This document shows positions 3,796 to 20,145 of a stretch of 32,000 bases of DNA, piece after piece. The notes under the pieces are model-generated. The model saw only the letters and a list, made by a program, of their open reading frames with translations, was not told the origin of the DNA and did not search any database. Numbering within the stretch: position 1 is the first letter of the stretch; the number at the start of each line of letters is the position of its first letter. The position numbers and the translations under genes are program-made. Source of the stretch: Candidatus Sodalis pierantonii str. SOPE (lineage in GTDB: Bacteria > Pseudomonadota > Gammaproteobacteria > Enterobacterales > Enterobacteriaceae); assembly GCF_000517405.1 (NCBI RefSeq), contig NZ_CP006568.1, positions 1,669,152-1,701,151 on the forward strand. The letters run 5' to 3'.

Positions 3796-5110
3796 GACCC
3801 TGTACACGATTCTGTGTAAATGCCTTTTCTCAGAAGTGACCGTCCAGGCGGTCACCGAACTCGATAATAAAGCGGCTCATTGCCATGCGCCAGTCCCTCA
3901 AAGGCATTGTCCATTTCTGTGAGGCTGCCTGTATCGCCAGCCACACCACCTTTTTCACTGCGTCGTCGGTCGGGAACACCTTGCGCTTTTTGATGGCATG
4001 CCGGATCACGCTGTTTAACGACTCGATGGCGTTGGTCGTGTAGATCACCTTGCGGATGTCCGTTGGGTAGGCAAAGAACGTGGCCAGATTGGCCCAGTTT
4101 GCCTGCCAGCTTCGACTTATTTGTGGGTAGCGGATGTCCCAGGCACTGAAGAACGCTTCCAGCGCCTGCAAGCCGGCTTCTTCCGTAGGGGCCTGATAGA
4201 TAGCTTTCAGGTCGCGGGTGACGGCCTTGTAGTCCTTCCAGGAGACGAACCGCAGGCTGTTGCGCACCATATGCACGATACACAGCTGGAGCCGCGCCTC
4301 CGGATACACCGCGTTAATAGCGTCAGGGAAACCTTTCAGCCCGTCTACGCAGGCGATAAGGATATCGTTCAGGCCGCGGTTTTTCAGCTCTGTCAGCACG
4401 TTCAGCCAGAACTTTGCGCCTTCATTTTCGGCCAGCCACATACCTAGCAACTCTTTCTGGCCTTCGATGTTGATGCCCAGCGCCAGGAACACAGATTTGT
4501 TGATGATGCGGCTGTCCTGCCGGACTTTTAGAACGATACAGTCAAGATAAACAATGGGATAGACTGCATCCAGAGGCCGGTTTTGCCATTCAACAACCTG
4601 CTCCATGACCGCATCGGTGACCTTTGAGACCAGCGCCGGCGAGACATCGGCGTCATACAGCTCTTTGAACGCGGCGGCGATCTCGCGGGTGGTCATCCCT
4701 TTGGCGTACAACGATAAAATCTGGTTATCCATCCCGGTAATCCGGGTCTGGTTCTTCTTCACCAGTTGCGGTTCAAAGGAACCGTCACGATCGCGCGGAG
4801 TACGCAGCGCCAGCGGGCCATCGCCAGTGGTAACGGTTTTTGTGGAATAGCCGTTGCGGGCGTTGGTCCCCGGTTTAGGCTGATTTTTATCGTAGCCGAG
4901 GTGATGGGTCATTTCGGCATTGAGAGCTGCTTCGACGCTGATTTTTTTCAGCAGCCGATCGAAGTGACTGAGATCTTCAGGGGTTTTGAGATTTTTGGCC
5001 AGTTCGTTAGCCAGAGCCTGCAACTGTTTTTCGTCCATAAATTAACCTGTTTTTGATGTTGGATTGAACATATCAAAATCAGGCAAATACACAAATTTCT
5101 AAACAGGCTC
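3796..5110 (-). mobile_element. IS256-family insertion sequence, copy A (1315 bp) with 8-bp target duplication
   Basis: Imperfect terminal inverted repeats are GAGCCTGTTTAGAAATTTGTGTATTTGC and GACCCTGTACACGATTCTGTGTAAATGC. ACCAACCG is directly repeated at 3788-3795 and 5111-5118. About 99% identical to copy B at 18831-20145. Confidence 0.92.
3830..5038 (-). CDS. IS256-family (Mutator-type) DDE transposase, intact
   Basis: 402-aa ORF with typical IS256-family blocks ([39 protein letters not shown]). It lies 72 nt from one IS end and 34 nt from the other, the same as in copy B. Confidence 0.95.
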
Positions 5111-8770: not shown

Positions 8771-9520
8771 TTAGTCTATTTTTCCTGTGCTGGCTACTCC
8801 TTGCTCTTTGCGTAGTGATTCGTCTTTAAGTTCCAGCCTATAGCTGGGGTGTACTAACCGATCGAGTAACGCGTCAGCTGTCGTGGAGTTTTCTATCAGT
8901 CCATACCATTTTTTCACCGGCAGTTGACTGATCAGGATGCTGCTGCTTTTGTCGTAGCGATCTTCCATCACCTCCAACAGCATCGTTGCCTGCATCGGAC
9001 TTATTGATTCTAGGCCCACGTCGTCCAAGATCAGTAACTCTATTTTTTCTAACTGCTTAAGCTGTTTTAGATAGGTCCCGTCTACCTGACACTGGTGAAG
9101 ATGGGCCAGCAACCGACCCACTCGCCAGTAACGCACGCTATATTGCTGCCGGCATGCCTGCTCACCAAGCGCACAACTGAGCCAGGTTTTGCCCGTACCT
9201 GTTGGCCCCGTGATGAGTATGCTTTTCTGATATTTCAGATATTGTCCCCCTAGCAGATCTCGCATCTGTTCCGGTGTCACTCCTCGGCTAGGGATATAGC
9301 GGATATCTTCCGGTTTTGCCTGCAAGCGCATTTGCGATTGCCGTCGCATATGGCATATGTGGTTGTTTTTTCTATGCAAATTTTCCGCTTCTACCATCAG
9401 CGACAACCGCTCCTCGAACCCCAGCTCCCCATAACTCCCCGGGAGTTCGCGTTGCGTCTCCAACGCCTGGACCATTGCCGATAACTTCAGCTTTCGCAGA
9501 GCCATTAACAGTGTATCCAT
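8771..9520 (-). CDS. istB: IS21-family helper ATPase IstB, intact
   Basis: 249-aa ORF with Walker A (GPTGTGKT) and Walker B (LLILDDVG). It starts 11 nt after the inferred istA stop. Confidence 0.93.
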   Translation of the reverse strand: MDTLLMALRKLKLSAMVQALETQRELPGSYGELGFEERLSLMVEAENLHRKNNHICHMRRQSQMRLQAKPEDIRYIPSRGVTPEQMRDLLGGQYLKYQKSILITGPTGTGKTWLSCALGEQACRQQYSVRYWRVGRLLAHLHQCQVDGTYLKQLKQLEKIELLILDDVGLESISPMQATMLLEVMEDRYDKSSSILISQLPVKKWYGLIENSTTADALLDRLVHPSYRLELKDESLRKEQGVASTGKID

Positions 9521-9531
9521 ATTTATTCTCC

Positions 9532-11090
9532 TTAGTGATAACTGTCCGGACCTCGGAGGTTTTCGTGAACCAGCATTGATACGCCGGCTCCGTCCTGGGT
9601 GACCTCACTTTCACGACCGTGTTTCAATACGTTGGCTATGAAAGAGCGGTTAATGCACCCTTTCTCCAACGCCAGCGCGCAGGCCTTCTCCAGTCGCGTC
9701 GTCTCATAGCGCCGTTGCAGATTGCAGATTGAGTAGCCCCAGCACGGAGCGGTAAGCCTGCTCCGGATGGGCTTTGCTCTTTTGGATGGACTCGACCACT
9801 TTCAGTGTGCACACACCCACCGACAGCGCCCAACTACACAGCCTTTCCGGCGTCCACTGACTCTGCCCCTTATGGGTTAGCCGGCATGTGCGCCGCCTGA
9901 GTCGTGTGCCTATAGGCGTTATCGCTGCGAGGGTGCGTAGCCACGCAGACGCCCTTATGGTGGATTTGCACCAGCCGTTGGGTGGCGATGACGTCAACGC
10001 GCTCGCCAACCAGCGGATGCGGCACCGAGTACCAGTTTTTGCCGTAGTCTATGTGGTAATCAGGTCCCACTCGGGCAACGAGATACTCACTGTATTCCCA
10101 TTGTGTGGGCGGTAGAGGCCCAAGAGCCGGTTTGTCCAGCTGCTCGAAGCGTTCAAGGCGACTTTGTCCGCCGTAATGACGCATCGGGCGCAAATTCAAC
10201 TCATGATTGAGTTCTCGTATCACCTGGTTGAGTTCGGCCAGCGAGTAGAACCTACGTTTACGCAACCGGGCCAAAACCCAGCGTTCTACCAGCTGCACAG
10301 TTGATTCTGCCTTCGCCTTGTCTTTCGGTTTTCTCGGGCGCGCCGGTAGCACCACTGTCTCATAGTGATTTGCCAGCGCCTGGTAGCTCTGGTTTATGAC
10401 CGGCTCATAGCGGTCAGGGGTGCTGACAGCGCTGCGCAGATTATCAGGTATCATCAGCTCCGGAACCCCACCCATGAAGTGCAGGCAGCGGCTATTGGCG
10501 TTGAGCCACGATGCCATGTCCTGGCCTTCGCAGGCTTCGATATACGCATAGCCTGACACGCCCATGGCAGCGACGAAGATAGCGACCTGGCGTACGTTAC
10601 CGGTCGCAGGGTTGACGATAGGTACGGTGGGGCCACAGAAGTCGATGAAGAGCTTTTCGCCAGCCTTGTGCTCCATGCGCATGGAACGCCGCTGCTTCTT
10701 TTTCCAGTCACGGAACAGTGCACAAAACTGTGAGTAACCGAGGGCATCACCGCCCACGGCGGACTGATATTCCATCCAGAGCAGCTGCTTGGTCATGCCC
10801 TTGAGGCTTAACTCGGTATCGATATCAAGCCAGCTGGGTAAGGTATTGATAACTTTTCCGGATTTGCCGGGATAGAGCAGGCGGTCGAGGTCGACGGGGG
10901 ACAGTTCCGCCGGCAATGGCCAGACCAGGTTAGCTACCGTGAATCGGCCGAGGATATCGTGCACGGTAGTACAGCCTATGCCGAGCGCTGCTGCGATAGT
11001 GCGATTCGAGCGACGCTGCTCGAATTTCATACGTAAGACATTAATATAGATGCACATTTCCGTTCTCGCTTTCTTCTTTTTACGTGCCAT
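9532..11090 (-). pseudogene. istA: IS21-family transposase IstA, two frameshifts
   Basis: A 406-aa N-terminal ORF ends at 9870 (...HMPANP*). It continues in another frame as KGQSQWTPERLCSWALSVGV...AHPEQAYRSVLGLLNLQ. A 7-bp tandem duplication (GCAGATT GCAGATT at 9717-9730) then shifts the frame again before RRYETTRLEKACALALEKGCINRSF...GPDSYH*. The total of 1559 nt minus 8 nt gives 517 codons. Confidence 0.88.
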
Positions 11091-11922
11091 GCCATGCCCC
11101 CGGAAGCTAAAAGTCTCCAGAGTATGGCGGAACAGAAGATGAGCGATCGGACAGAATCGGAATCGCTGATCGGGCGACCGGAATCAGCACGGGGATCGCG
11201 GCCAGCGCAGCACCCGACGCAGCCTGCATTACTATTTCGTCGCCCAGGATATCCATGAACGGGCCAGCTCAGCGCATGCGCGTTATCAGCAACTCCGCGG
11301 AGAGCTGCGTTTCAGCGATGTGCTGTTCCGTTTCCAACGCCTGTTGGAAATGCAGGCCCGCGCCTGCGAAAAACTCTCGCAATCTATTCTGCTGCGCCGT
11401 CGTTATCAGCACGATCCACGTTTCGAGCGCCTTTTTAGCCATCTTGACGCCGCCATCGCCAGCGCCGGTGCGGGGGCGCCCCTCGGCGCGCTGCACCCTT
11501 TGCTGAGCAACCTGCGCTCGATTGATGCCCAACTGGCCACCATCGAATCCGAGCAGGCCATCGCCCGAATGCCCACCGAGGATAATAGCCTGTCCGACGA
11601 TAAGCTTACCGGCTGGCTGGATATCCGCAGCCGTTTGCGGCTGAATCTGACGCCGGAATCCGCCCTGTTCCGTCATGCGGTGCGCATGTCGCTGGTATTG
11701 TGCGCCGGCTACGCGTTTATCCGTTTAAGCGGCATGCATTATGGCTATTGGATAATGCTGACCAGCCTGTTCGTCTGCCAGCCAAACTATCAGGCAACGC
11801 GACGGCGGCTGGCGCTGCGTATTATCGGTACCGTCGCCGGGGTAGTGATTGGCCTGCCGGTGCTGTATTTTATACCGTCCACCGAAGGTCAGCTGGTGCT
11901 TATCGTGTTGAGCGGCACGCTG

Positions 11923-11929
11923 TTTTTTT
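11923..11929 (+). repeat. T7 homopolymer carrying the yccS frameshift
   Basis: ctg ttt ttt tgc ctt tcg caa tag is out of frame. With one fewer T the frame reads LFFAFRNSQYAQATLFITLLVMLCFNL, which matches YccS. Confidence 0.85.
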
Positions 11930-12628
11930 GCCTTTCGCAATAGCCAATATGCCCAGGCCACCCTGTTTATCACCCTGCTGGTGATGCTCTGCTTCAACCT
12001 GGTCGACCAGGGCTTTGAGGTCGCGCTGCCGCGCCTGTTCGATACCCTGGTGGGCTGCGCCATCGCCTGGGCGGCGGTCAGTTTTATCTGGCCCGACTGG
12101 CGCTTTCGGCGCCTGCCCGCCGTGGTGGAAAAAAGCCTGACTGCCAACTGCCGCTACCTGGATGCCATTTTGGTGCAATACCATCAAGGCAAAGATAACC
12201 GCCTCGAGTACCGCGTGGCGCACAGTGATGCCCACAACCGCGATGCGGAACTGGCGTCGGTGGTGTCGAATATGTCCGCCGAACGCCGCGCGGGCGGGGA
12301 GCTCATGGATAACGCCTTCCGCCTGCTGTGTTTGAGCCACACCTTTCTCAGTTATGTTTCCACCTTGGGCGTCCACCGGGGGCTTATCGACAACCCGGCG
12401 GTGCTAGATATTCTTAATGACGCCACCTGTTATGTCGATGCTTTTCAGGCGCGTCTTAGCCAGGAGCGCGAAAAACTGCTGGCGCGTATCGCACAACTGG
12501 AGCCGGAGCCGGGCGCCCGGGAACAGCTGGTGATGCAGCAGGTCGGCCTGTTGCTGGCGCTGCTCCCTGAATTGACCGGCCGCAGCCGGCTGATAGCGCA
12601 GCAGAGTTAGCTTGCGCCCGAAGTGACA

Positions 12629-13228
12629 TCAGGCATGGCGGCGATGCCACTCCATCAGTTCGTTTCGCAAACACGGGGGCAGCGCCGCCAAATGCCGCCC
12701 TGCCAATGCCCCTTCCAGGGCCAACAGAACTTTGACGCTCAAATCCCGTTTGATGTTACGTAATTTCAGATAACTTGCTTTAGCGCCATGATTGCGCAGC
12801 GCATCCACATTTTGGATACCGGCTTTCCATAAAAGCCGCTCAATGCCCTGGCCGATGTTGGGCAGGTCTTTCAGGCGCGGGTGATCCGCCCGCACCTGCC
12901 GTTCGCGGCGCGCCTCCTCCAGCGTTTGTCTCCTGAGTACTATCAGCGTCGCCGGCGCATCCCACAGGGTCTCCGGCAGATGATAATAGTTCAGCGTGAC
13001 AGGGATGCCGCGCTTGGTGTAGATCAGTTTGCGCATCCCCAGCTCGCTATAGCGGTCTTCGTTGCCGCGAATACCGCGCAGCCAGCACTCGCCCTCGAGG
13101 ATTAGCGCGAACATGACCCCTCCTGCCGCCACGCTGTAGCCCCCGAATTGAGAACGGGTCGTTATCTCCCCTAATGGAGAAAACAGCGTCTTTGCCTGTT
13201 GAATACGTAACTTATAGTTAGCGTTCAT
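12629..13228 (-). CDS. sxy: competence regulator TfoX/Sxy, apparently intact
   Basis: 199-aa ORF. The blocks ...LGEITTRSQFGGYSV...VTLNYYHLPETLW...RLKDLPNIG...ALRNHGAKASYLKLR...LLALEGALAG are collinear with E. coli Sxy (209 aa). It is divergent from sulA, as in E. coli. Confidence 0.85.
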   Translation of the reverse strand: MNANYKLRIQQAKTLFSPLGEITTRSQFGGYSVAAGGVMFALILEGECWLRGIRGNEDRYSELGMRKLIYTKRGIPVTLNYYHLPETLWDAPATLIVLRRQTLEEARRERQVRADHPRLKDLPNIGQGIERLLWKAGIQNVDALRNHGAKASYLKLRNIKRDLSVKVLLALEGALAGRHLAALPPCLRNELMEWHRRHA

Positions 13229-13361: not shown

Positions 13362-13398
13362 TTGATTTTAACGCGCATCCCGGATACTGTGTTTTTAT
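13362..13398 (+). promoter_or_regulatory. sulA promoter (-35 TTGATT, 17-nt spacer, -10 TACTGT) plus the left half of the LexA box, now separated from sulA
   Basis: TTGATT lies at 13362-13367 and TACTGT at 13385-13390. GTTTTTAT at 13391-13398 is the left copy of the ISL3 target duplication. The layout resembles the recalled E. coli sulA promoter/SOS box. Confidence 0.7.
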
Positions 13399-13523
13399 GG
13401 GTCTTCCCCTGTTGTGGTGGCTCAATCGACAGTTTTGCATTTTTACTTTACTTATTTCTTTTGGCTGGAACTTGGACTTCTATATGGATGTCAAACGTAT
13501 TTACGTTTAAAGGAATAACGTTC

Positions 13524-13814
13524 ATGTCATGCTTAAAAAAATATGCATATGCCCCATTTATCTTACTGCTTCATGGTGTTGCAGCATCGGCCTCACCAAA
13601 TCTGATGTATAACACTGATAAGAAAGACTATTCACTGTCACCAGAGGTAACGCCAAAATTATCTTGGGAGAAAAGTGAGTCTCAAGTTGATAAAACTCAA
13701 TATTGTCTTACCCCTAGCGATCCGGGATGCAGCAATATGTGGCAAAAGGAAAATGAAAAGGAGAATGACGAGCGAATACAACATCACCAGCAAAAAAATT
13801 TTATAACTCCCTAA
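13524..13814 (+). CDS. hypothetical small secreted protein (96 aa) inside the ISL3 element
   Basis: ATG at 13524 with AAGGA 9 nt upstream. The N-terminus MSCLKKYAYAPFILLLHGVAASA-SPN looks like a Sec signal peptide. The mature part is Lys/Glu/Asn-rich with one Cys pair (CLTPSDPGC). The segment is strongly AT-rich relative to the window. I recognise no homolog. Confidence 0.45.
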   Translation: MSCLKKYAYAPFILLLHGVAASASPNLMYNTDKKDYSLSPEVTPKLSWEKSESQVDKTQYCLTPSDPGCSNMWQKENEKENDERIQHHQQKNFITP

Positions 13815-13823
13815 AATGATTGC

Positions 13824-15046
13824 TCAAAAATTCATATTTAGTTTCCCATAGTGGAACATTACGCCCATCTTGAAACGTTCTTTGTTCCTGAGGCCCCGTG
13901 ACTTGATCCTGAGCAGCCGTATTTTGCTGTTCAGGGACTCCGCATTCCCATTTGATACCCGGTTTTTCATTGCATTCAGAATGCCGTAAAGGCGTTTTGC
14001 CACCATGCGGGCAATGCTGGCCATGAGCGGTATGCCGGTGTCTTTAGCCATCGCTATTCATTCCTGCCACAGCTTACGGCTATGATTGTCATAGCGGCGG
14101 TGCCACAGATCGCGAGCAAGCTCTTTCATTACCCAGCACTGGCTCGTTTGGGGTAACATCAGCCGGGCAACTTCTAACCTCTCTGCCCGGCACCCGAGGC
14201 GATTTTGCTTGCTGTAAAACCATAGATAGCGTGAGCGGTGGGCGTCTTTCCTGTCTGACGACGGGATCTGTTTCATCTCAGCCTGACGGGTTTTATCAAC
14301 GACGGCGCACAACATTTTTGCCACATGGAAGTGATCGAAAGCGATTTTATCGACGGCATTGGGGAGATGGATGCGGGCTGCACTGATATAGGCCATGTTC
14401 ATGTCCATAGACAGCGTTTTTATCTCATCAAGCTGGTGATCTCTCAGCCTGCGCAGATAACTGGCAAGGCTTTCTACACCACGGTCGTCGATCAGTTGCA
14501 AAGCGCGTCCCTGCCTGTCAGAGATAACGGTGACGTACTGGTGTCCTTTTTTGAACCCGACTTCATCCACGCAGAGGTGACGGGCGGATAAGGGTTGTTT
14601 TATCCGGGCCAAGCCTCGTTTGACTGCGCGCATCATGATGCCGTCAACGGCATTCCAACTGAGTTTGAACTGCTTTCTGACAGCATCCACGGTGCTGACT
14701 TTCAGCCATGAAAGAACAAAGGGTTAGAACAACAAGGTGTAGCGGCTGCCTGACCCTGCCCAGGGAACAGGCAGTATCTGGCAACCGTGCTCGGGGCAGT
14801 CAACACGCGGGGGACATCAGCCTCAACCAGCGTGGTGAACTGACAGGTATCGAGGTGACGCCATTTACGACGCCGGTGATCATGTATGGAGCAGGATTTA
14901 CCGCAGGTTGGGCAGGCCAGTTGTGTGTGCTCGGCAATGCCGACAATTACCGTCACTGATCCAGATTTTTCATCAAGAGAAAGGGATTGTACCTGCCACG
15001 GTGCGAACAGGTTAAGGATATCGGCATAGAGGGACTTTTCGTCCAT
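13824..15046 (-). pseudogene. ISL3-family transposase: frameshift, TAA and TGA
   Basis: MDEKSLYADILNLFAPWQVQSLSLDEKSGSVTVIV...CPTCGKSCSIHDHRRRKWRHLDTCQFTTLVEADVPRV is followed by a frameshift at about 14798-14806. The frame continues DCPEHGCQILPVPWAGSGSRYTLLF*(TAA 14724-14726)PFVLSWLKVSTVDAVRKQFKLSWNAV...LWQE*(TGA 14055-14057)IAMAKDTGIP...SNGNAESLNSKIRLLRIKSRGLRN. GAGGAG lies before the ATG at 15046. Confidence 0.88.
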
Positions 15047-15112
15047 GGCAGACTCCTCAAAAATCAAGACTGCCATCATAATGCCCTTAGCCACCACAAC
15101 AGAGGAAGACCC

Positions 15113-15126
15113 GTTTTTATACAGTA
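15113..15126 (+). promoter_or_regulatory. right half of the split sulA LexA box (TSD copy plus ACAGTA)
   Basis: GTTTTTAT ACAGTA lies 19 nt upstream of the sulA ATG. Joined with 13385-13398 it rebuilds TACTGTGTTTTTATACAGTA. Confidence 0.7.
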
Positions 15127-15145
15127 ACACAGGGGCAGACATCCA

Positions 15146-15676
15146 ATGCAAACTCATCCTTATGCCACACCCGTAACCGGCGCACGCCGCCGCCGCGACG
15201 CCCAGCCTGAGGGCGTGAACGCGCCTTTGGCGCAGGGAGGGATCAGCGAAGTGGTTTATATTGAAGATCAGCCGGTGGTCGGACATATTCTGCTGCCGCT
15301 GCCGCTGCCGCTGCCGCTGCCGCTGCTGCGCCAGCTGGGTTTGCAATCCCGGCGGCTGCTGTGGCTGACATCGTCACGGCGGCTGAGCCGTCCCTGGCTG
15401 GCCCAGTCGGGCCTGCCGCTGCAAAAGGTGGTGCAGCTGCGTCAGCCGTCAGCGTTCGATACCGTTGCGGCAATGGAAAAAGCCTTGCTCACCGGCAATT
15501 TCAGCGTCATTCTGAGGTGATTTCCCGCTGAGCTGTCGGAAACGGACAAGCGTCGTTTGCAGAATGCCGCCCAGCAAGGCGGAACTTTCGGTTTCATCAT
15601 GTATCCGCAAAGCGGCTCGAATCGTCATTCTGGACAGTTTTCAGGGTTAAAAATTCACTCAACTTTGTATCATTAA
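15146..15676 (+). pseudogene. sulA: SOS cell-division inhibitor SulA with in-frame TGA, detached from its promoter
   Basis: The 177-codon frame reads ...[45 protein letters not shown]...[19 protein letters not shown]...GTFGFIMYPQS...SGLKIHSTLYH*. TGA at 15518-15520 aligns with the Trp of E. coli VIGWLADD. Confidence 0.85.
15293..15328 (+). repeat. (CTGCCG)5 + CTGCTG hexanucleotide tandem repeat inside sulA
   Basis: Five perfect CTGCCG units at 15293-15322 encode (Leu-Pro)5. E. coli has LLLLPLLQQ in this region. Confidence 0.9.
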
Positions 15677-16039: not shown

Positions 16040-17093
16040 GGCTTTGTTGAATAAATCGAACTTTTAGGTGACTGGCGGCTCTGATCACTACATTCGTTTC
16101 AAAATCAGGTCCCCATGGCAAAGCAAAAGTTTAAAATCACCAACTGGCCCGCATACAACAATGCGCTCAGGCAGCGGGGGGACATGACAGTATGGCTTGA
16201 TGAGTCAGCCATTGCTGCATGGACTGAGAGTACACCACCTGAACATCGTGGCCGGCCGCTTCACTACACCGATATGGCCATTACCACGGTTCTGATGATA
16301 AAGCGCGTGTTTAACCTTTCGCTCCGGGCGTTACAGGGTTTCGTTGACGCGATTTTAAACTGATGGGGCTGTCGCTGCGCTGCCCAGATTACTCTCTGGT
16401 CAGCCGGCGAGCAAAAACCGTCGACATCAGCATAAAAACGCCAACCCGCGGCGAAATCTCACACCTGGTCATCGATGGCACCGGCCTGAAAATCTTCGGC
16501 GAAGGCGAATGGAAAGTCAGGCAGCATGGGGCTGAGAGGCGCAGAGTATGGCGCAAGCTTCATCTGGCAGTAGATAGCGCGACACATGAAATTATCTGTG
16601 CCGATTTATCGCTAAGCGGTACGACAGATGCGCAGGCGCTGCCCGGGCTGATTAACCAAACCCACCGGAAAATCAGGGAAGCGTCGGCTGACAGTGCTTA
16701 CGATACGCGTTACTGTCATGATGCTCTGCTGAGGAAAAAAATAAAGCCGCTTATCCCACCGCGAAGTGGTGCGCAATATTGGCCAGCTCGATACCATGAG
16801 CGTAACCATGCGGTGGCAAATCAGCATCTGAGCGGCAATAACGATACCTGGAAAAAGAAAGTAGGTTATCACCGGCGTTCACTGGCTGAAACGGCCATGT
16901 TCCGGTTTAAAACACTTCTGGGTGGTCATCTGAGTCTGCATGACTATGACGCGCAGGTAGGTGAGGCTATGGCAATGGTCAAAGCGCTTAACCGGATCAC
17001 GTTGTTAGGAATGCCAAACAGCGTCCGCATCATGTAACAATCGCCCTGATAGGGAGGAAGTCGTCACAAATTTCGGATTTATTCAACAAAGCG
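16040..17093 (+). mobile_element. IS5-family (IS903-group) insertion sequence (1054 bp) with 9-bp target duplication
   Basis: The left IR GGCTTTGTTGAATAAATCG (16040-16058) is the IS903 terminal repeat as I recall it. The right end, reverse-complemented, is CGCTTTGTTGAATAAATCCG. GAAAAAGAC is duplicated at 16031-16039 and 17094-17102. Confidence 0.92.
16115..17037 (+). pseudogene. IS903-like DDE transposase, one frameshift
   Basis: MAKQKFKITNWPAYNNALRQRGDMTVWLDE...LRALQGFVDAIL (82 aa) is followed, after a 1-nt loss in ATTTTAAAC (about 16353-16360), by LMGLSLRCPDYSLVSRRAKTV...GMPNSVRIM. Together the two parts are collinear with the single 307-aa IS903 transposase. Confidence 0.9.
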
Positions 17094-18177
17094 GAAAAAG
17101 ACAGCTATCGCACTTGCAGTGGCACTGGCAGGTTTCGCAACCGTAGCGCAAGCCGCTCCGAAAGACGACACCTGGTACACTGGCGGCAAACTGGGCTGGT
17201 CCCAGTACCACGACACCGGTTTCTACGGTAACGGTTTCGACAACCGCATCGGCAACGGTCCTACCCGTGATGACCAGTTAGGCGCGGGTGCTTTCGTCGG
17301 CTACCAGGCGAACCAGTACCTTGGTTTCGAGCTGGGCTACGACTGGCTGGGCCGTATGGCGTACAAAGGCAGCGTGAACAACGGCTCGTTCAAAGCGCAG
17401 GGTATTTCCCTGGCCGCCAAGCTGAGCTACCCGCTGACCGACGACCTGGACATCTACACCCGTCTGGGCGGCATGGTATGGCATGCTGATTCCAAAGGTG
17501 CTTACGACAACGGCAATGCAGGCCCGCGTAAGCGACCACGACACCGGCGTTTCCCCGCTGGCCGCTGTGGATCTGGAATATGCCTGGACCAAAAACTGGG
17601 CTACCCGTCTGGACTACCAGTGAGTTAACAACATCGGTGATACCGGTACCGTCGGTATCCGTCCTGATAACTCCATAGCTGAGCGTTGGCGTGTCCTACC
17701 GCTTTGGCCAGGATGAAGTGGCTGCCCCGGCTTCGGCTCCGGTTGTTCAGACCAAGCGCTTCACCCTGAAGTCTGACGTGCTGTTCAACTTCGACAAAGC
17801 CACGCTGAAACCGGAAGGTCAGCAAGCGCTGGATCAGCTGTACTCCCAGCTGAGCTCGATGGATCCGAAAGACGGCTCCGTTATCGTTCTGGGCTACACC
17901 GACCGTATCGGTTCCGACGCCTACAACCAGAAACTGTCTCAGGCGCGCGCACAGAGCGTCGTAAGCTACCTGGTTTCCAAAGGTATCCCTTCCGACAAGA
18001 TTTCCGCACGCGGTATGGGTAAATCCAACCCGGTTACTGGCAACACCTGTAACAGCGTGAAAGGCCGCGCCGCAGTCATCAGCTGCCTGGCCCCTGATCG
18101 TCGCGTAGAGATCGAAGTGAAAGGCATCAAAGACGTGGTAACTCAGCCGCAGGCTTAAGTTATCATATCGTGATAAA

Positions 18178-18198
18178 CCCCGGCGCGGCCGGGTTTTT
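18178..18198 (+). terminator. rho-independent terminator of ompA
   Basis: CCCGGC gcg GCCGGG followed by TTTTT, 20 nt after the ompA stop. This is the same position as the E. coli ompA terminator. Confidence 0.6.
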
Positions 18199-18830: not shown

Positions 18831-20145
18831 GAGCCTGTTTAGAAATTTGTGTATTTGCTTGATTTTGATATGTTCAATCCAACATCAAAAACAGGTTAAT
18901 TTATGGACGAAAAACAGTTGCAGGCTCTGGCTAACGAACTGGCCAAAAATCTCAAAACCCCTGAAGATCTCAGTCACTTCGATCGGCTGCTGAAAAAAAT
19001 CAGCGTCAAAGCAGCTCTCAATGCCGAAATGACCCATCACCTCGGCTACGATAAAAATCAGCCTAAACCGGGGACCAACGCCCGCAACGGCTATTCCACA
19101 AAAACCATTACCACTGGCTATGGCCCGCTGGCGCTGCGTACTCCACGCGATCGTGACGGTTCCTTTGAACCGCAACTGGTGAAGAAGAACCAGCCCCGGA
19201 TTACCGGGATGGATAACCAGATTTTATCGTTGTACGCCAAAGGGATGACCACCCGCGAGATCGCCGCCGCGTTCAAAGAGCTGTATGACGCCGATGTCTC
19301 GCCGGCGCTGGTCTCAAAGGTCACCGATGCGGTCATGGAGCAGGTTGTCGAATGGCAAAACCGGCCTCTGGATGCAGTCTATCCCATTGTTTATCTTGAC
19401 TGTATCGTTCTAAAAGTCCGGCAGGACAGCCGCATCATCAACAAATCTGTGTTCCTGGCGCTGGGCATCAACATCGAAGGCCAGAAAGAGTTGCTAGGTA
19501 TGTGGCTGGCCGAAAATGAAGGCGCAAAGTTCTGGCTGAACGTGCTGACAGAGCTGAAAAACCGCGGCCTGAACGATATCCTTATCGCCTGCGTAGACGG
19601 ACTGAAAGGTTTCCCTGACGCTATTAACGCGGTGTATCCGGAGGCGCGGCTCCAGCTGTGTATCGTGCATATGGTGCGCAACAGCCTGCTGTTCGTCTCC
19701 TGGAAGAACTACAAGGCCGTCACCCGCGACCTGAAAGCTATTCTTCAGGCCCCTACGGAAGAAGCCGGCTTGCAGGCGCTGGAAGCGTTCTCCAGTGCCT
19801 GGGACATCCGCTACCCGCAAATAAGTCGAAGCTGGCAGGCAAACTGGGCCAATCTGGCCACGTTCTTTGCCTACCCAACGGACATCCGCAAGGTGATCTA
19901 CACGACCAACGCCATCGAGTCGTTAAACAGCGTGATCCGGCATGCCATCAAAAAGCGCAAGGTGTTCCCGACCGACGACGCAGTGAAAAAGGTGGTGTGG
20001 CTGGCGATACAGGCGGCCTCACAGAAATGGACAATGCCTTTGAGGGACTGGCGCATGGCAATGAGCCGCTTTATTATCGAGTTCGGTGACCGCCTGGACG
20101 GTCACTTCTGAGAAAAGGCATTTACACAGAATCGTGTACAGGGTC
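18831..20145 (+). mobile_element. IS256-family insertion sequence, copy B (1315 bp), no target duplication
   Basis: Ends and length are the same as copy A. The flanks are CCGTATTG on the left and GTTGTCTA on the right, so they are not duplicated. Confidence 0.92.
18903..20111 (+). CDS. IS256-family transposase, intact ORF, 8 aa differences from copy A
   Basis: 402 aa. Differences from copy A are E36K, V69I, D73Y, T98P, SLRF->SLLF, WKDY->WKNY, AIYQ->AILQ and AFFS->AFSS. Confidence 0.95.
   Translation: MDEKQLQALANELAKNLKTPEDLSHFDRLLKKISVKAALNAEMTHHLGYDKNQPKPGTNARNGYSTKTITTGYGPLALRTPRDRDGSFEPQLVKKNQPRITGMDNQILSLYAKGMTTREIAAAFKELYDADVSPALVSKVTDAVMEQVVEWQNRPLDAVYPIVYLDCIVLKVRQDSRIINKSVFLALGINIEGQKELLGMWLAENEGAKFWLNVLTELKNRGLNDILIACVDGLKGFPDAINAVYPEARLQLCIVHMVRNSLLFVSWKNYKAVTRDLKAILQAPTEEAGLQALEAFSSAWDIRYPQISRSWQANWANLATFFAYPTDIRKVIYTTNAIESLNSVIRHAIKKRKVFPTDDAVKKVVWLAIQAASQKWTMPLRDWRMAMSRFIIEFGDRLDGHF

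Follow-up and report, generated by a model that had tools for sequence, protein, structure and literature searches.

The chromosome of Candidatus Sodalis pierantonius str. SOPE, a symbiont of the rice weevil, carries an insertion sequence (IS) of the ISL3 family placed exactly in the spacer of the LexA operator, or SOS box, of the gene sulA. We analysed 32,000 nucleotides (nt) of this chromosome (hereafter, the window) together with relatives of the element in genomes, plasmids and metagenomes. The window copy is one decayed instance of operator-specific insertion, and our comparison indicates that an enterobacterial clade of ISL3 elements very probably inserts preferentially into SOS boxes of the form CTGT-N8-ACAG that have an AT-rich spacer. 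Three proteins of the window match SOPE accessions exactly, namely TfoX (WP_025245027.1), Uup (AHF73736.1) and the ISSoEn2 transposase (AHF73729.1).

The element is an ISSoEn4-type, non-autonomous IS of 1714 base pairs (bp) lying on the minus strand between positions 13399 and 15112. It starts with GGGTCTTCC at 13399 and finishes with GGAAGACCC at 15112, and a repeat search outlined 24-bp terminal inverted repeats with 23 of 24 matching positions, the left one (GGGTCTTCCCCTGTTGTGGTGGCT) on the plus strand at 13399-13422 and the right one on the minus strand at 15089-15112; these are the only two occurrences in the window, where none are expected by chance. Immediately outside of them we read two copies of the duplication GTTTTTAT, at 13391-13398 and 15113-15120, and this direct repeat is exactly 8 bp long, since the adjoining bases differ on each side. 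Pfam searches of the minus strand detected the zinc ribbon PF14690 (Zn_ribbon_ISL3, E = 6.6e-11) and the catalytic domain PF01610 (DDE_Tnp_ISL3), the latter in two pieces covering positions 1-171 and 178-238 of the profile. These features place the element in the ISL3 family, whose members have a DDE transposase that bears a zinc ribbon at its N-terminus, terminal inverted repeats of ~15-39 bp and a target duplication of 8 bp (ISfinder-type description). A preliminary description of the window, made from the sequence alone, had already proposed an ISL3 element with these boundaries. Congruently, the inverted repeats fall at the same positions, and an element of 92% identity, carried by a Rahnella plasmid, finishes with the identical 24-mer; the left repeat is found unchanged at the end of this Rahnella element and of many metagenome elements.

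The left copy of the duplication is preceded by the −35 hexamer TTGATT (13362-13367), a 17-nt spacer and the half-site TACTGT (13385-13390), which doubles as the −10 box. The right copy is followed by the half-site ACAGTA (15121-15126) and, after 19 nt, by the ATG of sulA at 15146, all of them on the plus strand. When the IS and one copy of the duplication are deleted the site becomes TACTGTGTTTTTATACAGTA, a CTGT-N8-ACAG palindrome (SOS-box consensus TACTGTATATATATACAGTA) in which the duplication, with seven of its eight bases A or T, is the spacer. The preliminary description had claimed that the duplication is the operator spacer with one half-site left at each junction, that the IS sits between sulA and its promoter, and that the −35/−10 pair is intact at the left junction; direct reading confirmed all of this. 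By its palindrome and its conserved position in an SOS promoter the reconstructed site would qualify as a gammaproteobacterial LexA operator. We likewise infer that TTGATT-17-TACTGT works as a promoter, presumably in the way of its E. coli sulA homolog; a consensus promoter scan misses it because TACTGT matches only three of the six bases of TATAAT, and such a scan is uninformative on real transcription. The CTGT-N8-ACAG motif does not occur anywhere in the 32-kb window, which rules out an SOS box inside the IS that regulates the transposase.

The uninterrupted site is preserved in relatives, as the preliminary description anticipated. In S. praecaptivus HS (CP006569.1), the closest free-living relative, the 195-bp spacer between tfoX and sulA is uninterrupted and carries TACTGTGTTTTTATACAGTA intact. 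The window without the IS and one duplication is identical to HS over the last ~70 bp, comprising the promoter, the box and the leader, and the two blocks of its alignment with HS share exactly 8 bp, namely the duplication. Moreover, the relatives share the box as a 19-20-mer: Sodalis sp. Tcar, Acerihabitans arboris, Acerihabitans sp. TG2, Sodalis sp. RH13 and an Enterobacterales metagenome-assembled genome (MAG) all have TACTGTGTTTTTATACAGT with the same spacing to sulA, close variants of it occupy the same place in four more genomes, and E. coli K-12 has TACTGTACATCCATACAGTA at this position. The layout TTGAT(T/C)-17 nt-TACTGT is kept in S. praecaptivus HS, other Sodalis, Acerihabitans and E. 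coli K-12; in these Sodalis, Acerihabitans and K-12 promoters the box overlaps the −10 and lies 19-22 nt before the sulA ATG, and the surrounding sequence diverges. The locus is further anchored by tfoX/sxy, the divergent neighbour on the minus strand (12629-13228, identified by Pfam and by its exact accession match), and by the SulA domain (PF03846, E = 4.4e-30) of the open reading frame (ORF) starting at 15146, which together reproduce the sxy-sulA-ompA synteny of E. coli K-12 and HS.

We defined the clade by GGGTCTTCC termini and by flanks reading CTGT-N8 on one side and N8-ACAG on the other, with N8 duplicated, and the window element conforms in both terminus and flanks. The clade comprises ISSoEn4, ISKox3, ISCfr12, ISEc53 and unnamed elements of Rahnella and Enterobacter, with 62-100% transposase identity to ISKox3. 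Of the 26 independent annotated sites, 23 have the element within CTGT-N8-ACAG, N8 being the duplication. A Rahnella aceris plasmid provides an unrelated second insertion with the structure TACTGT-GAATACAC-IS-GAATACAC-ACAGTA, and an ISSoEn4-like element that we found by protein look-up on a Joint Genome Institute metagenome contig splits TACTGT-ACGTATAT-ACAGTA. The related elements ISKox3, ISCfr12 and ISEc53 occupy 3,265 places in 1,771 of 5,426 complete E. coli genomes, and every ISKox3 or ISCfr12 copy of E. coli that we opened lies in a box, save for one decayed copy (L158) whose ends were not found. In this species the sbmC box is split by insertions in both orientations, and others occupy boxes at dinD, umuDC, tisB and hokE, six further chromosomal or prophage boxes and one plasmid site (ISCfr12). 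Enterobacter bugandensis has insertions at umuDC, tisB and one further box. On plasmids, ISEc53 occupies the dinI-umuD box of an IncF replicon, ISCfr12 and ISKox3 occupy umuD boxes in Citrobacter and Enterobacter, respectively, and an IncX3 NDM-5 plasmid has a copy beside humD whose one readable flank is ATATGCAT-ACAGCT, the other being cut by the start of the record. We take the box sequences at umuDC, dinD, tisB and hokE to be those of the published E. coli LexA regulon, reportedly catalogued by Fernandez de Henestrosa et al. in 2000. ISKox3 is present on 1,676 plasmids in PLSDB, all of them from Enterobacterales hosts. One further ISL3 copy, reached through the protein P0063, is itself interrupted by an IS3 element, and its flanks were used.

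Next, we searched metagenome contigs with the IS terminus as the sole criterion, leaving the flank free, and obtained 120 contigs with 109 unique 20-nt flanks. We grouped the flanks by the internal part of the inverted repeat and took as the target clade the three repeat types that ISKox3 and ISSoEn4 also have. In the 81 unique target-clade flanks of at least 24 nt, positions −12 to −9 are C (94%), T (96%), G (98%) and T (85%), preceded by A in 75% at −13. The whole profile from −14 to −1 reads T/A-A-C-T-G-T-A-T-A-T-A-T-A-T, with ATATATAT as the consensus of the duplication, and equals the LexA consensus, TACTGTATATATAT. When 60 nt of flank were required, CTGT started at exactly −12 in 66 of 80 cases, and the remaining positions of these flanks give a background of 0.65% each (binomial P ~1e-129). 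The symmetric pattern CTG-N10-CAG was present across both flanks in 14 of the 15 complete elements, eight with identical 8-bp duplications and six joining two different half-boxes. Genes beside the split boxes encode DinI, GyrI-like SbmC, UmuD-like peptidases, DinB, DinD, a pore-forming colicin and TfoX, and the TfoX-adjacent case, TTGATT-17-TACTGT-ATACACAT-IS, is a second independent insertion in a sulA operator. The joins with non-matching 8-mers, six among the 15 complete elements (contigs L065, L079, L091, L104, L110, L141 and L154), bring together half-boxes of two SOS operators; they suggest recombination between copies residing in different operators, with rearrangement of the chromosome between SOS genes, or else they are assembly chimeras.

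A more distant ISL3 clade, picked up in the same search, served as control; its terminus is CCAATCATGGTGGGT, and its transposase shares ~41-43% identity with the ISKox3 enzyme. CTGT is absent from all 14 of its flanks, as compared with the 66 of 80 that have it in the target clade (Fisher P = 2e-9), yet the AT content of the duplications is practically the same (0.87 in the control and 0.88 in the target clade). The preliminary description had attributed the hit on the operator to the general AT-rich target preference of ISL3 elements, and this explanation fails, given that the control clade is equally AT-rich. An AT-rich duplication is a general ISL3 trait, to which one clade adds specificity for SOS boxes; in that clade the specificity holds from 100% down to ~62% transposase identity. 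The metagenome flanks, together with the known SOS-gene boxes occupied in E. coli, Enterobacter, Citrobacter, Rahnella and plasmids, make insertion into SOS boxes the rule for this lineage.

Several observations weigh against too strict a version of this rule, and the preference is strong but not absolute. The three exceptions among the 26 annotated sites are an ISEc53 copy in fimB of an ST131-type E. coli, an E. coli site reading TTGT (L027-29) and a decayed copy on a Klebsiella plasmid (L171); all three sites are AT-rich and partly box-like, with TGT or CA remnants. ISKox3 was also found in wzy, wzc and wza under selection for capsule loss, with AT-rich duplications and flanks that were not reported (PMC12057282). 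Junction queries in both orientations detected no ISKox3 in the sulA operator of any of the 5,426 complete E. coli genomes, the best partial match (H44) being another box, beside a recombinase gene; either the E. coli sulA spacer, ACATCCAT, is less AT-rich and hence seldom chosen, or selection removes the insertions that it receives. On a soil metagenome contig (L069), a truncated ISSoEn4-like element has CTGT 2 bp out of register. With it and the Joint Genome Institute copy as the two further ISSoEn4-like copies examined, the rule covers the clade and the window copy rather than the ISSoEn4 population. Finally, natural insertions have passed selection, and survivorship may account for part of the enrichment of real boxes over other CTGT-N8-ACAG sequences.

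The register of integration is fixed, the cuts falling at the borders of N8 with CTGT and with ACAG. In the sulA operator (TACTGT-GTTTTTAT-ACAGTA), an 8-bp staggered cut exactly at both edges of the spacer duplicated the spacer and left a half-site at each junction. We propose that the CTGT half-sites flanking the 8-bp stagger are read by a symmetric complex of the transposase. Such direct reading is suggested by the smallest members of the clade, such as the 1316-bp ISKox3, which encode the transposase alone, and by the specificity, which tracks the transposase phylogeny. Weaker symmetric target preferences are found in IS10, IS903 and IS30. Host LexA may still gate access to the site or help.

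An alternative is that the choice of site depends on LexA, either because the transposase is recruited by operator-bound LexA or needs the DNA shape that it imposes or, as the mirror image, because LexA occludes the site until it is cleaved during the SOS response. Integration would then be tied to LexA's state, and the clade would be a dedicated "SOS-operator hunter". In its favor, the flank profile fits the LexA consensus beyond the CTGT core (A at −13 in 75%, T/A at −14), nearly all of the identified sites are operators of real SOS genes, and the variants at the fourth base (CTGG, CTGA and CTGC, ~10%) mirror the tolerance of LexA. Moreover, every host seen belongs to the Enterobacterales, which have the same LexA motif, and tethering of integrases to DNA-bound host factors is known for Ty3, Ty5, human immunodeficiency virus and murine leukaemia virus. 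On the other hand, no extra domain or gene sets the targeting clade apart from the non-targeting one: the transposases of both are ~406 amino acids (aa) long and share all three of their Pfam domains. Real operators would also become enriched if insertions within genes were selected against. In the LexA-DNA crystal structure the recognition helices sit on the CTGT half-sites, beside the phosphates to be attacked, so simultaneous occupancy looks sterically difficult and insertion would be hindered, not aided, by bound LexA; the sites would then open only during the SOS response. On balance we lean toward direct recognition, at little better than even chances, and regard dependence on LexA as possible but distinctly less probable; our confidence in any one mechanism is low. 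If cleavage of LexA unmasks the sites, SOS promoters would be hit preferentially in stressed cells. If integration is coupled to LexA, this would be the first known case of a bacterial IS that is led to its target by a global host regulator's operator, and as a natural agent it would rewire the SOS regulon one gene after another (umuDC, tisB, sbmC, dinD, sulA), also in clinical strains with ISKox3-bearing NDM plasmids.

Much less probable is that survivorship alone created the pattern, with many AT-rich insertions taking place and those in dispensable SOS operators persisting. SOS genes are non-essential in unstressed growth, and boxes with essential functions are absent among the sites that we saw. 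It also agrees with this idea that ISKox3 can enter capsule genes when such insertions are selected (PMC12057282). Nevertheless, selection cannot fix the register to the base pair, and the duplication is N8 at every box site; neutral AT-rich intergenic DNA is abundant yet rarely used, the control clade does not show the pattern under the same kind of selection, and the sbmC box was entered in both orientations. Least credible of all, to the point that we give it almost no weight, is a chance insertion through the generic AT-rich 8-bp preference of the family: the composition of GTTTTTAT and of the duplications in both sampled clades would agree with it, but the control clade lacks CTGT, which the target clade has in 66 of 80 flanks and always in the same register, SOS boxes make up 23 of the 26 annotated sites, a sulA operator was hit a second time, and descent from a few ancestral insertions is excluded by the differing sequences beyond the boxes.

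In the window copy the transposase gene (13824-15046, minus strand) is a pseudogene. According to tblastn with the intact Rahnella transposase and to nucleotide alignment, it is disrupted at three points, by a 2-bp insertion at 14805-14806, a TAA at 14724-14726 and a TGA at 14058-14060. The preliminary description noted neither this decay nor that of sulA. Once repaired, its product is 96% identical to a SOPE protein annotated as "transposase ISSoEn4, ISL3 family" (P0001) and 93% identical to the intact 406-aa Rahnella transposase. As its reading frame is broken, the copy is not autonomous and could move only with transposase supplied in trans. The SOPE genome contains 19 copies of ISSoEn4, 10 of them disrupted (PMC3914690), and the window copy is one of the disrupted ones.

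An AT-rich segment of ~400 bp (13423-13823, ~38% GC) separates the left inverted repeat from the transposase gene's 3' end and holds a passenger ORF of 96 aa (13524-13814, plus strand, from the ORF list). Its product has a signal-peptide-like N-terminus and no match in Pfam or NCBIfam. The segment belongs to the element, because it is conserved in the truncated ISSoEn4-like element of the soil contig mentioned above (91% identity, 82% for the protein). Members of the clade often carry one passenger gene: ISEc53 encodes a ClbS/DfsB colibactin-resistance-type protein (L025, L160 and L169), a Rahnella element (L015) an SH3-domain protein, and an Enterobacter element (L030) has a 146-aa ORF. A passenger related to DNA damage in an element that lands in SOS promoters may be no coincidence.

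The insertion is expected to have regulatory consequences. At the junctions, GGGT stands in place of ACAG on the left and ACCC in place of CTGT on the right, which rules out that an operator was re-created at either of them. A LexA dimer needs both half-sites, and we infer that the insertion destroyed the sulA operator. Because neither junction restores the second half-site, the promoter at 13362-13390 should be constitutive, with transcription expected to enter the passenger ORF and to proceed antisense to the dead transposase gene. The sulA gene is now 1,722 bp from its promoter, and a crude scan predicted no sigma-70-like outward promoter on the plus strand at the right end of the IS. The lexA gene (SOPEG_3653, 609 bp) is listed among the intact orthologues of SOPE (PMC3914690, supplement), so the loss of the operator would be a real regulatory loss.

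The sulA gene itself (15146-15676, plus strand) is a pseudogene when aligned with the 168-aa SulA of HS, since its frame is not intact. The hexamer CTGCCG, present once in HS, is repeated five times at 15293-15322, which adds 24 bp and 8 aa in frame (LPLPLPLP). At 15518-15520 a tryptophan codon has become TGA (GGG TGG, Gly-Trp, to AGG TGA), with the loss of the last 44 codons. Counting the insertion, sulA has thus been inactivated three times over. The cells of SOPE are filamentous, and its dif has been lost (PMC3914690); with sulA dead, this shape cannot be SulA-dependent. Judged by its sequence, the locus is a decayed relic. Decay of sulA is a repeated event in Sodalis-allied symbionts: in Sodalis sp. 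Tcar (L003) the start codon reads ATC, in the symbiont of a Proechinophthirus louse (L013) the sulA box has degenerated to ATTATCTTTTTATATAG, and in the Sodalis MAG C12_2 (L012) only residues 87-123 of SulA remain, beside unrelated sequence. A Logan contig from run SRR29904084 has the same tfoX and ends within the inverted repeat of the IS, consistent with the same insertion.

All four IS families of SOPE are present in the window, and here the other three have hit genes, as opposed to ISSoEn4, which has hit an operator. ISSoEn3 (IS21-type; istA at 9870-11090 and istB at 8771-9520, minus strand) truncates yccS; homology with HS starts inside this gene at 11187, and the remainder is split into two ORFs (11320-12610). 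ISSoEn1 (IS5/IS903-type, 16044-17093) lies in the first four codons of ompA, after ATGAAAAAGAC. The remainder of ompA (17094-18198) has two frame changes relative to the HS protein, near 17522 and 17678, and this copy looks dead; the SOPE genome paper treats OmpA as present (PMC3914690). Two ISSoEn2 (IS256-type) transposase genes, at 3830-5038 on the minus strand and at 18903-20111 on the plus strand, bracket in inverted orientation the helD-yccS-tfoX-sulA-ompA block of ~14 kb, and could mediate its inversion.

A single IS in the operator of a decaying symbiont thus leads to a testable rule, according to which LexA boxes serve an IS clade of wide distribution as landing sites. To our knowledge, it is rare for IS elements to target a specific sequence. 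One prediction concerns copy number: an element restricted to the few dozen SOS boxes of a genome is expected to remain scarce, which would explain why SOPE has 19 copies of ISSoEn4 and 117-311 of each of the other three families (PMC3914690). ISKox3 has been found in 3,867 genomes (PMC12057282). It travels on conjugative resistance plasmids and moves into chromosomal operators, among them those of umuDC, tisB, sbmC, hokE and dinD. Since umuDC encodes an error-prone polymerase, tisB a persistence toxin and sbmC a gyrase inhibitor, the acquisition of an ISKox3 plasmid may change mutagenesis and drug tolerance. The flanks of the clade also constitute a natural catalogue of LexA boxes in uncultured Enterobacterales.

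The target rule is apparently undescribed, although earlier knowledge of it is possible. We found no description of SOS-operator targeting by ISL3 elements or ISKox3 in the searchable literature, a search that left subscription journals and ISfinder notes outside, and a large-scale study of IS neighbours makes no mention of SOS. The SOPE genome paper does not report on the target choice of ISSoEn4 and notes that SOPE's insertion sequences cluster in intergenic DNA (PMC3914690). ISKox3 is the element present on IncX3 blaNDM plasmids, and the literature treats it, like ISCfr12 and ISEc53, as a landmark of resistance plasmids or as a capsule mutagen (PMC12057282), without ascribing operator specificity to it.

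Among named elements, the window copy is closest to ISSoEn4 (formerly ISsope4), with which it shares 96% transposase identity and residence in SOPE. It has the same GGGTCTTCC termini, 8-bp duplications and boxes as ISKox3, ISCfr12 and ISEc53, whose 406-aa transposases are ~69% identical to its own. ISKox3 differs in having one gene in its 1316 bp, as compared with the 1714 bp of the window element and its passenger ORF downstream of the transposase gene; in ISEc53 the ClbS/DfsB gene lies upstream of the transposase gene. LexA-regulated mobile functions include integron integrase promoters, the CTX phage, SXT, GIL01 and colicin operons. These carry SOS boxes for their own regulation, whereas the window IS carries none and uses the boxes of the host for integration. 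Known site-specific elements are Tn7 (attTn7, through TnsD), the "res hunters" Tn5053/Tn402, IS1397 and ISKpn1, which enter the palindromes of repetitive extragenic palindromic sequences and bacterial interspersed mosaic elements, and IS30 with its palindromic hot spot. Like all of them, the ISL3 clade consists of DDE elements that choose a short, recurrent, often palindromic and protein-bound signal, and it thereby has a limited set of low-cost landing sites that are present on plasmids too. Unlike Tn7 and Tn5053, it encodes no accessory targeting protein; and unlike any of these elements, its signal is the operator of a global stress repressor, which is destroyed by being used.

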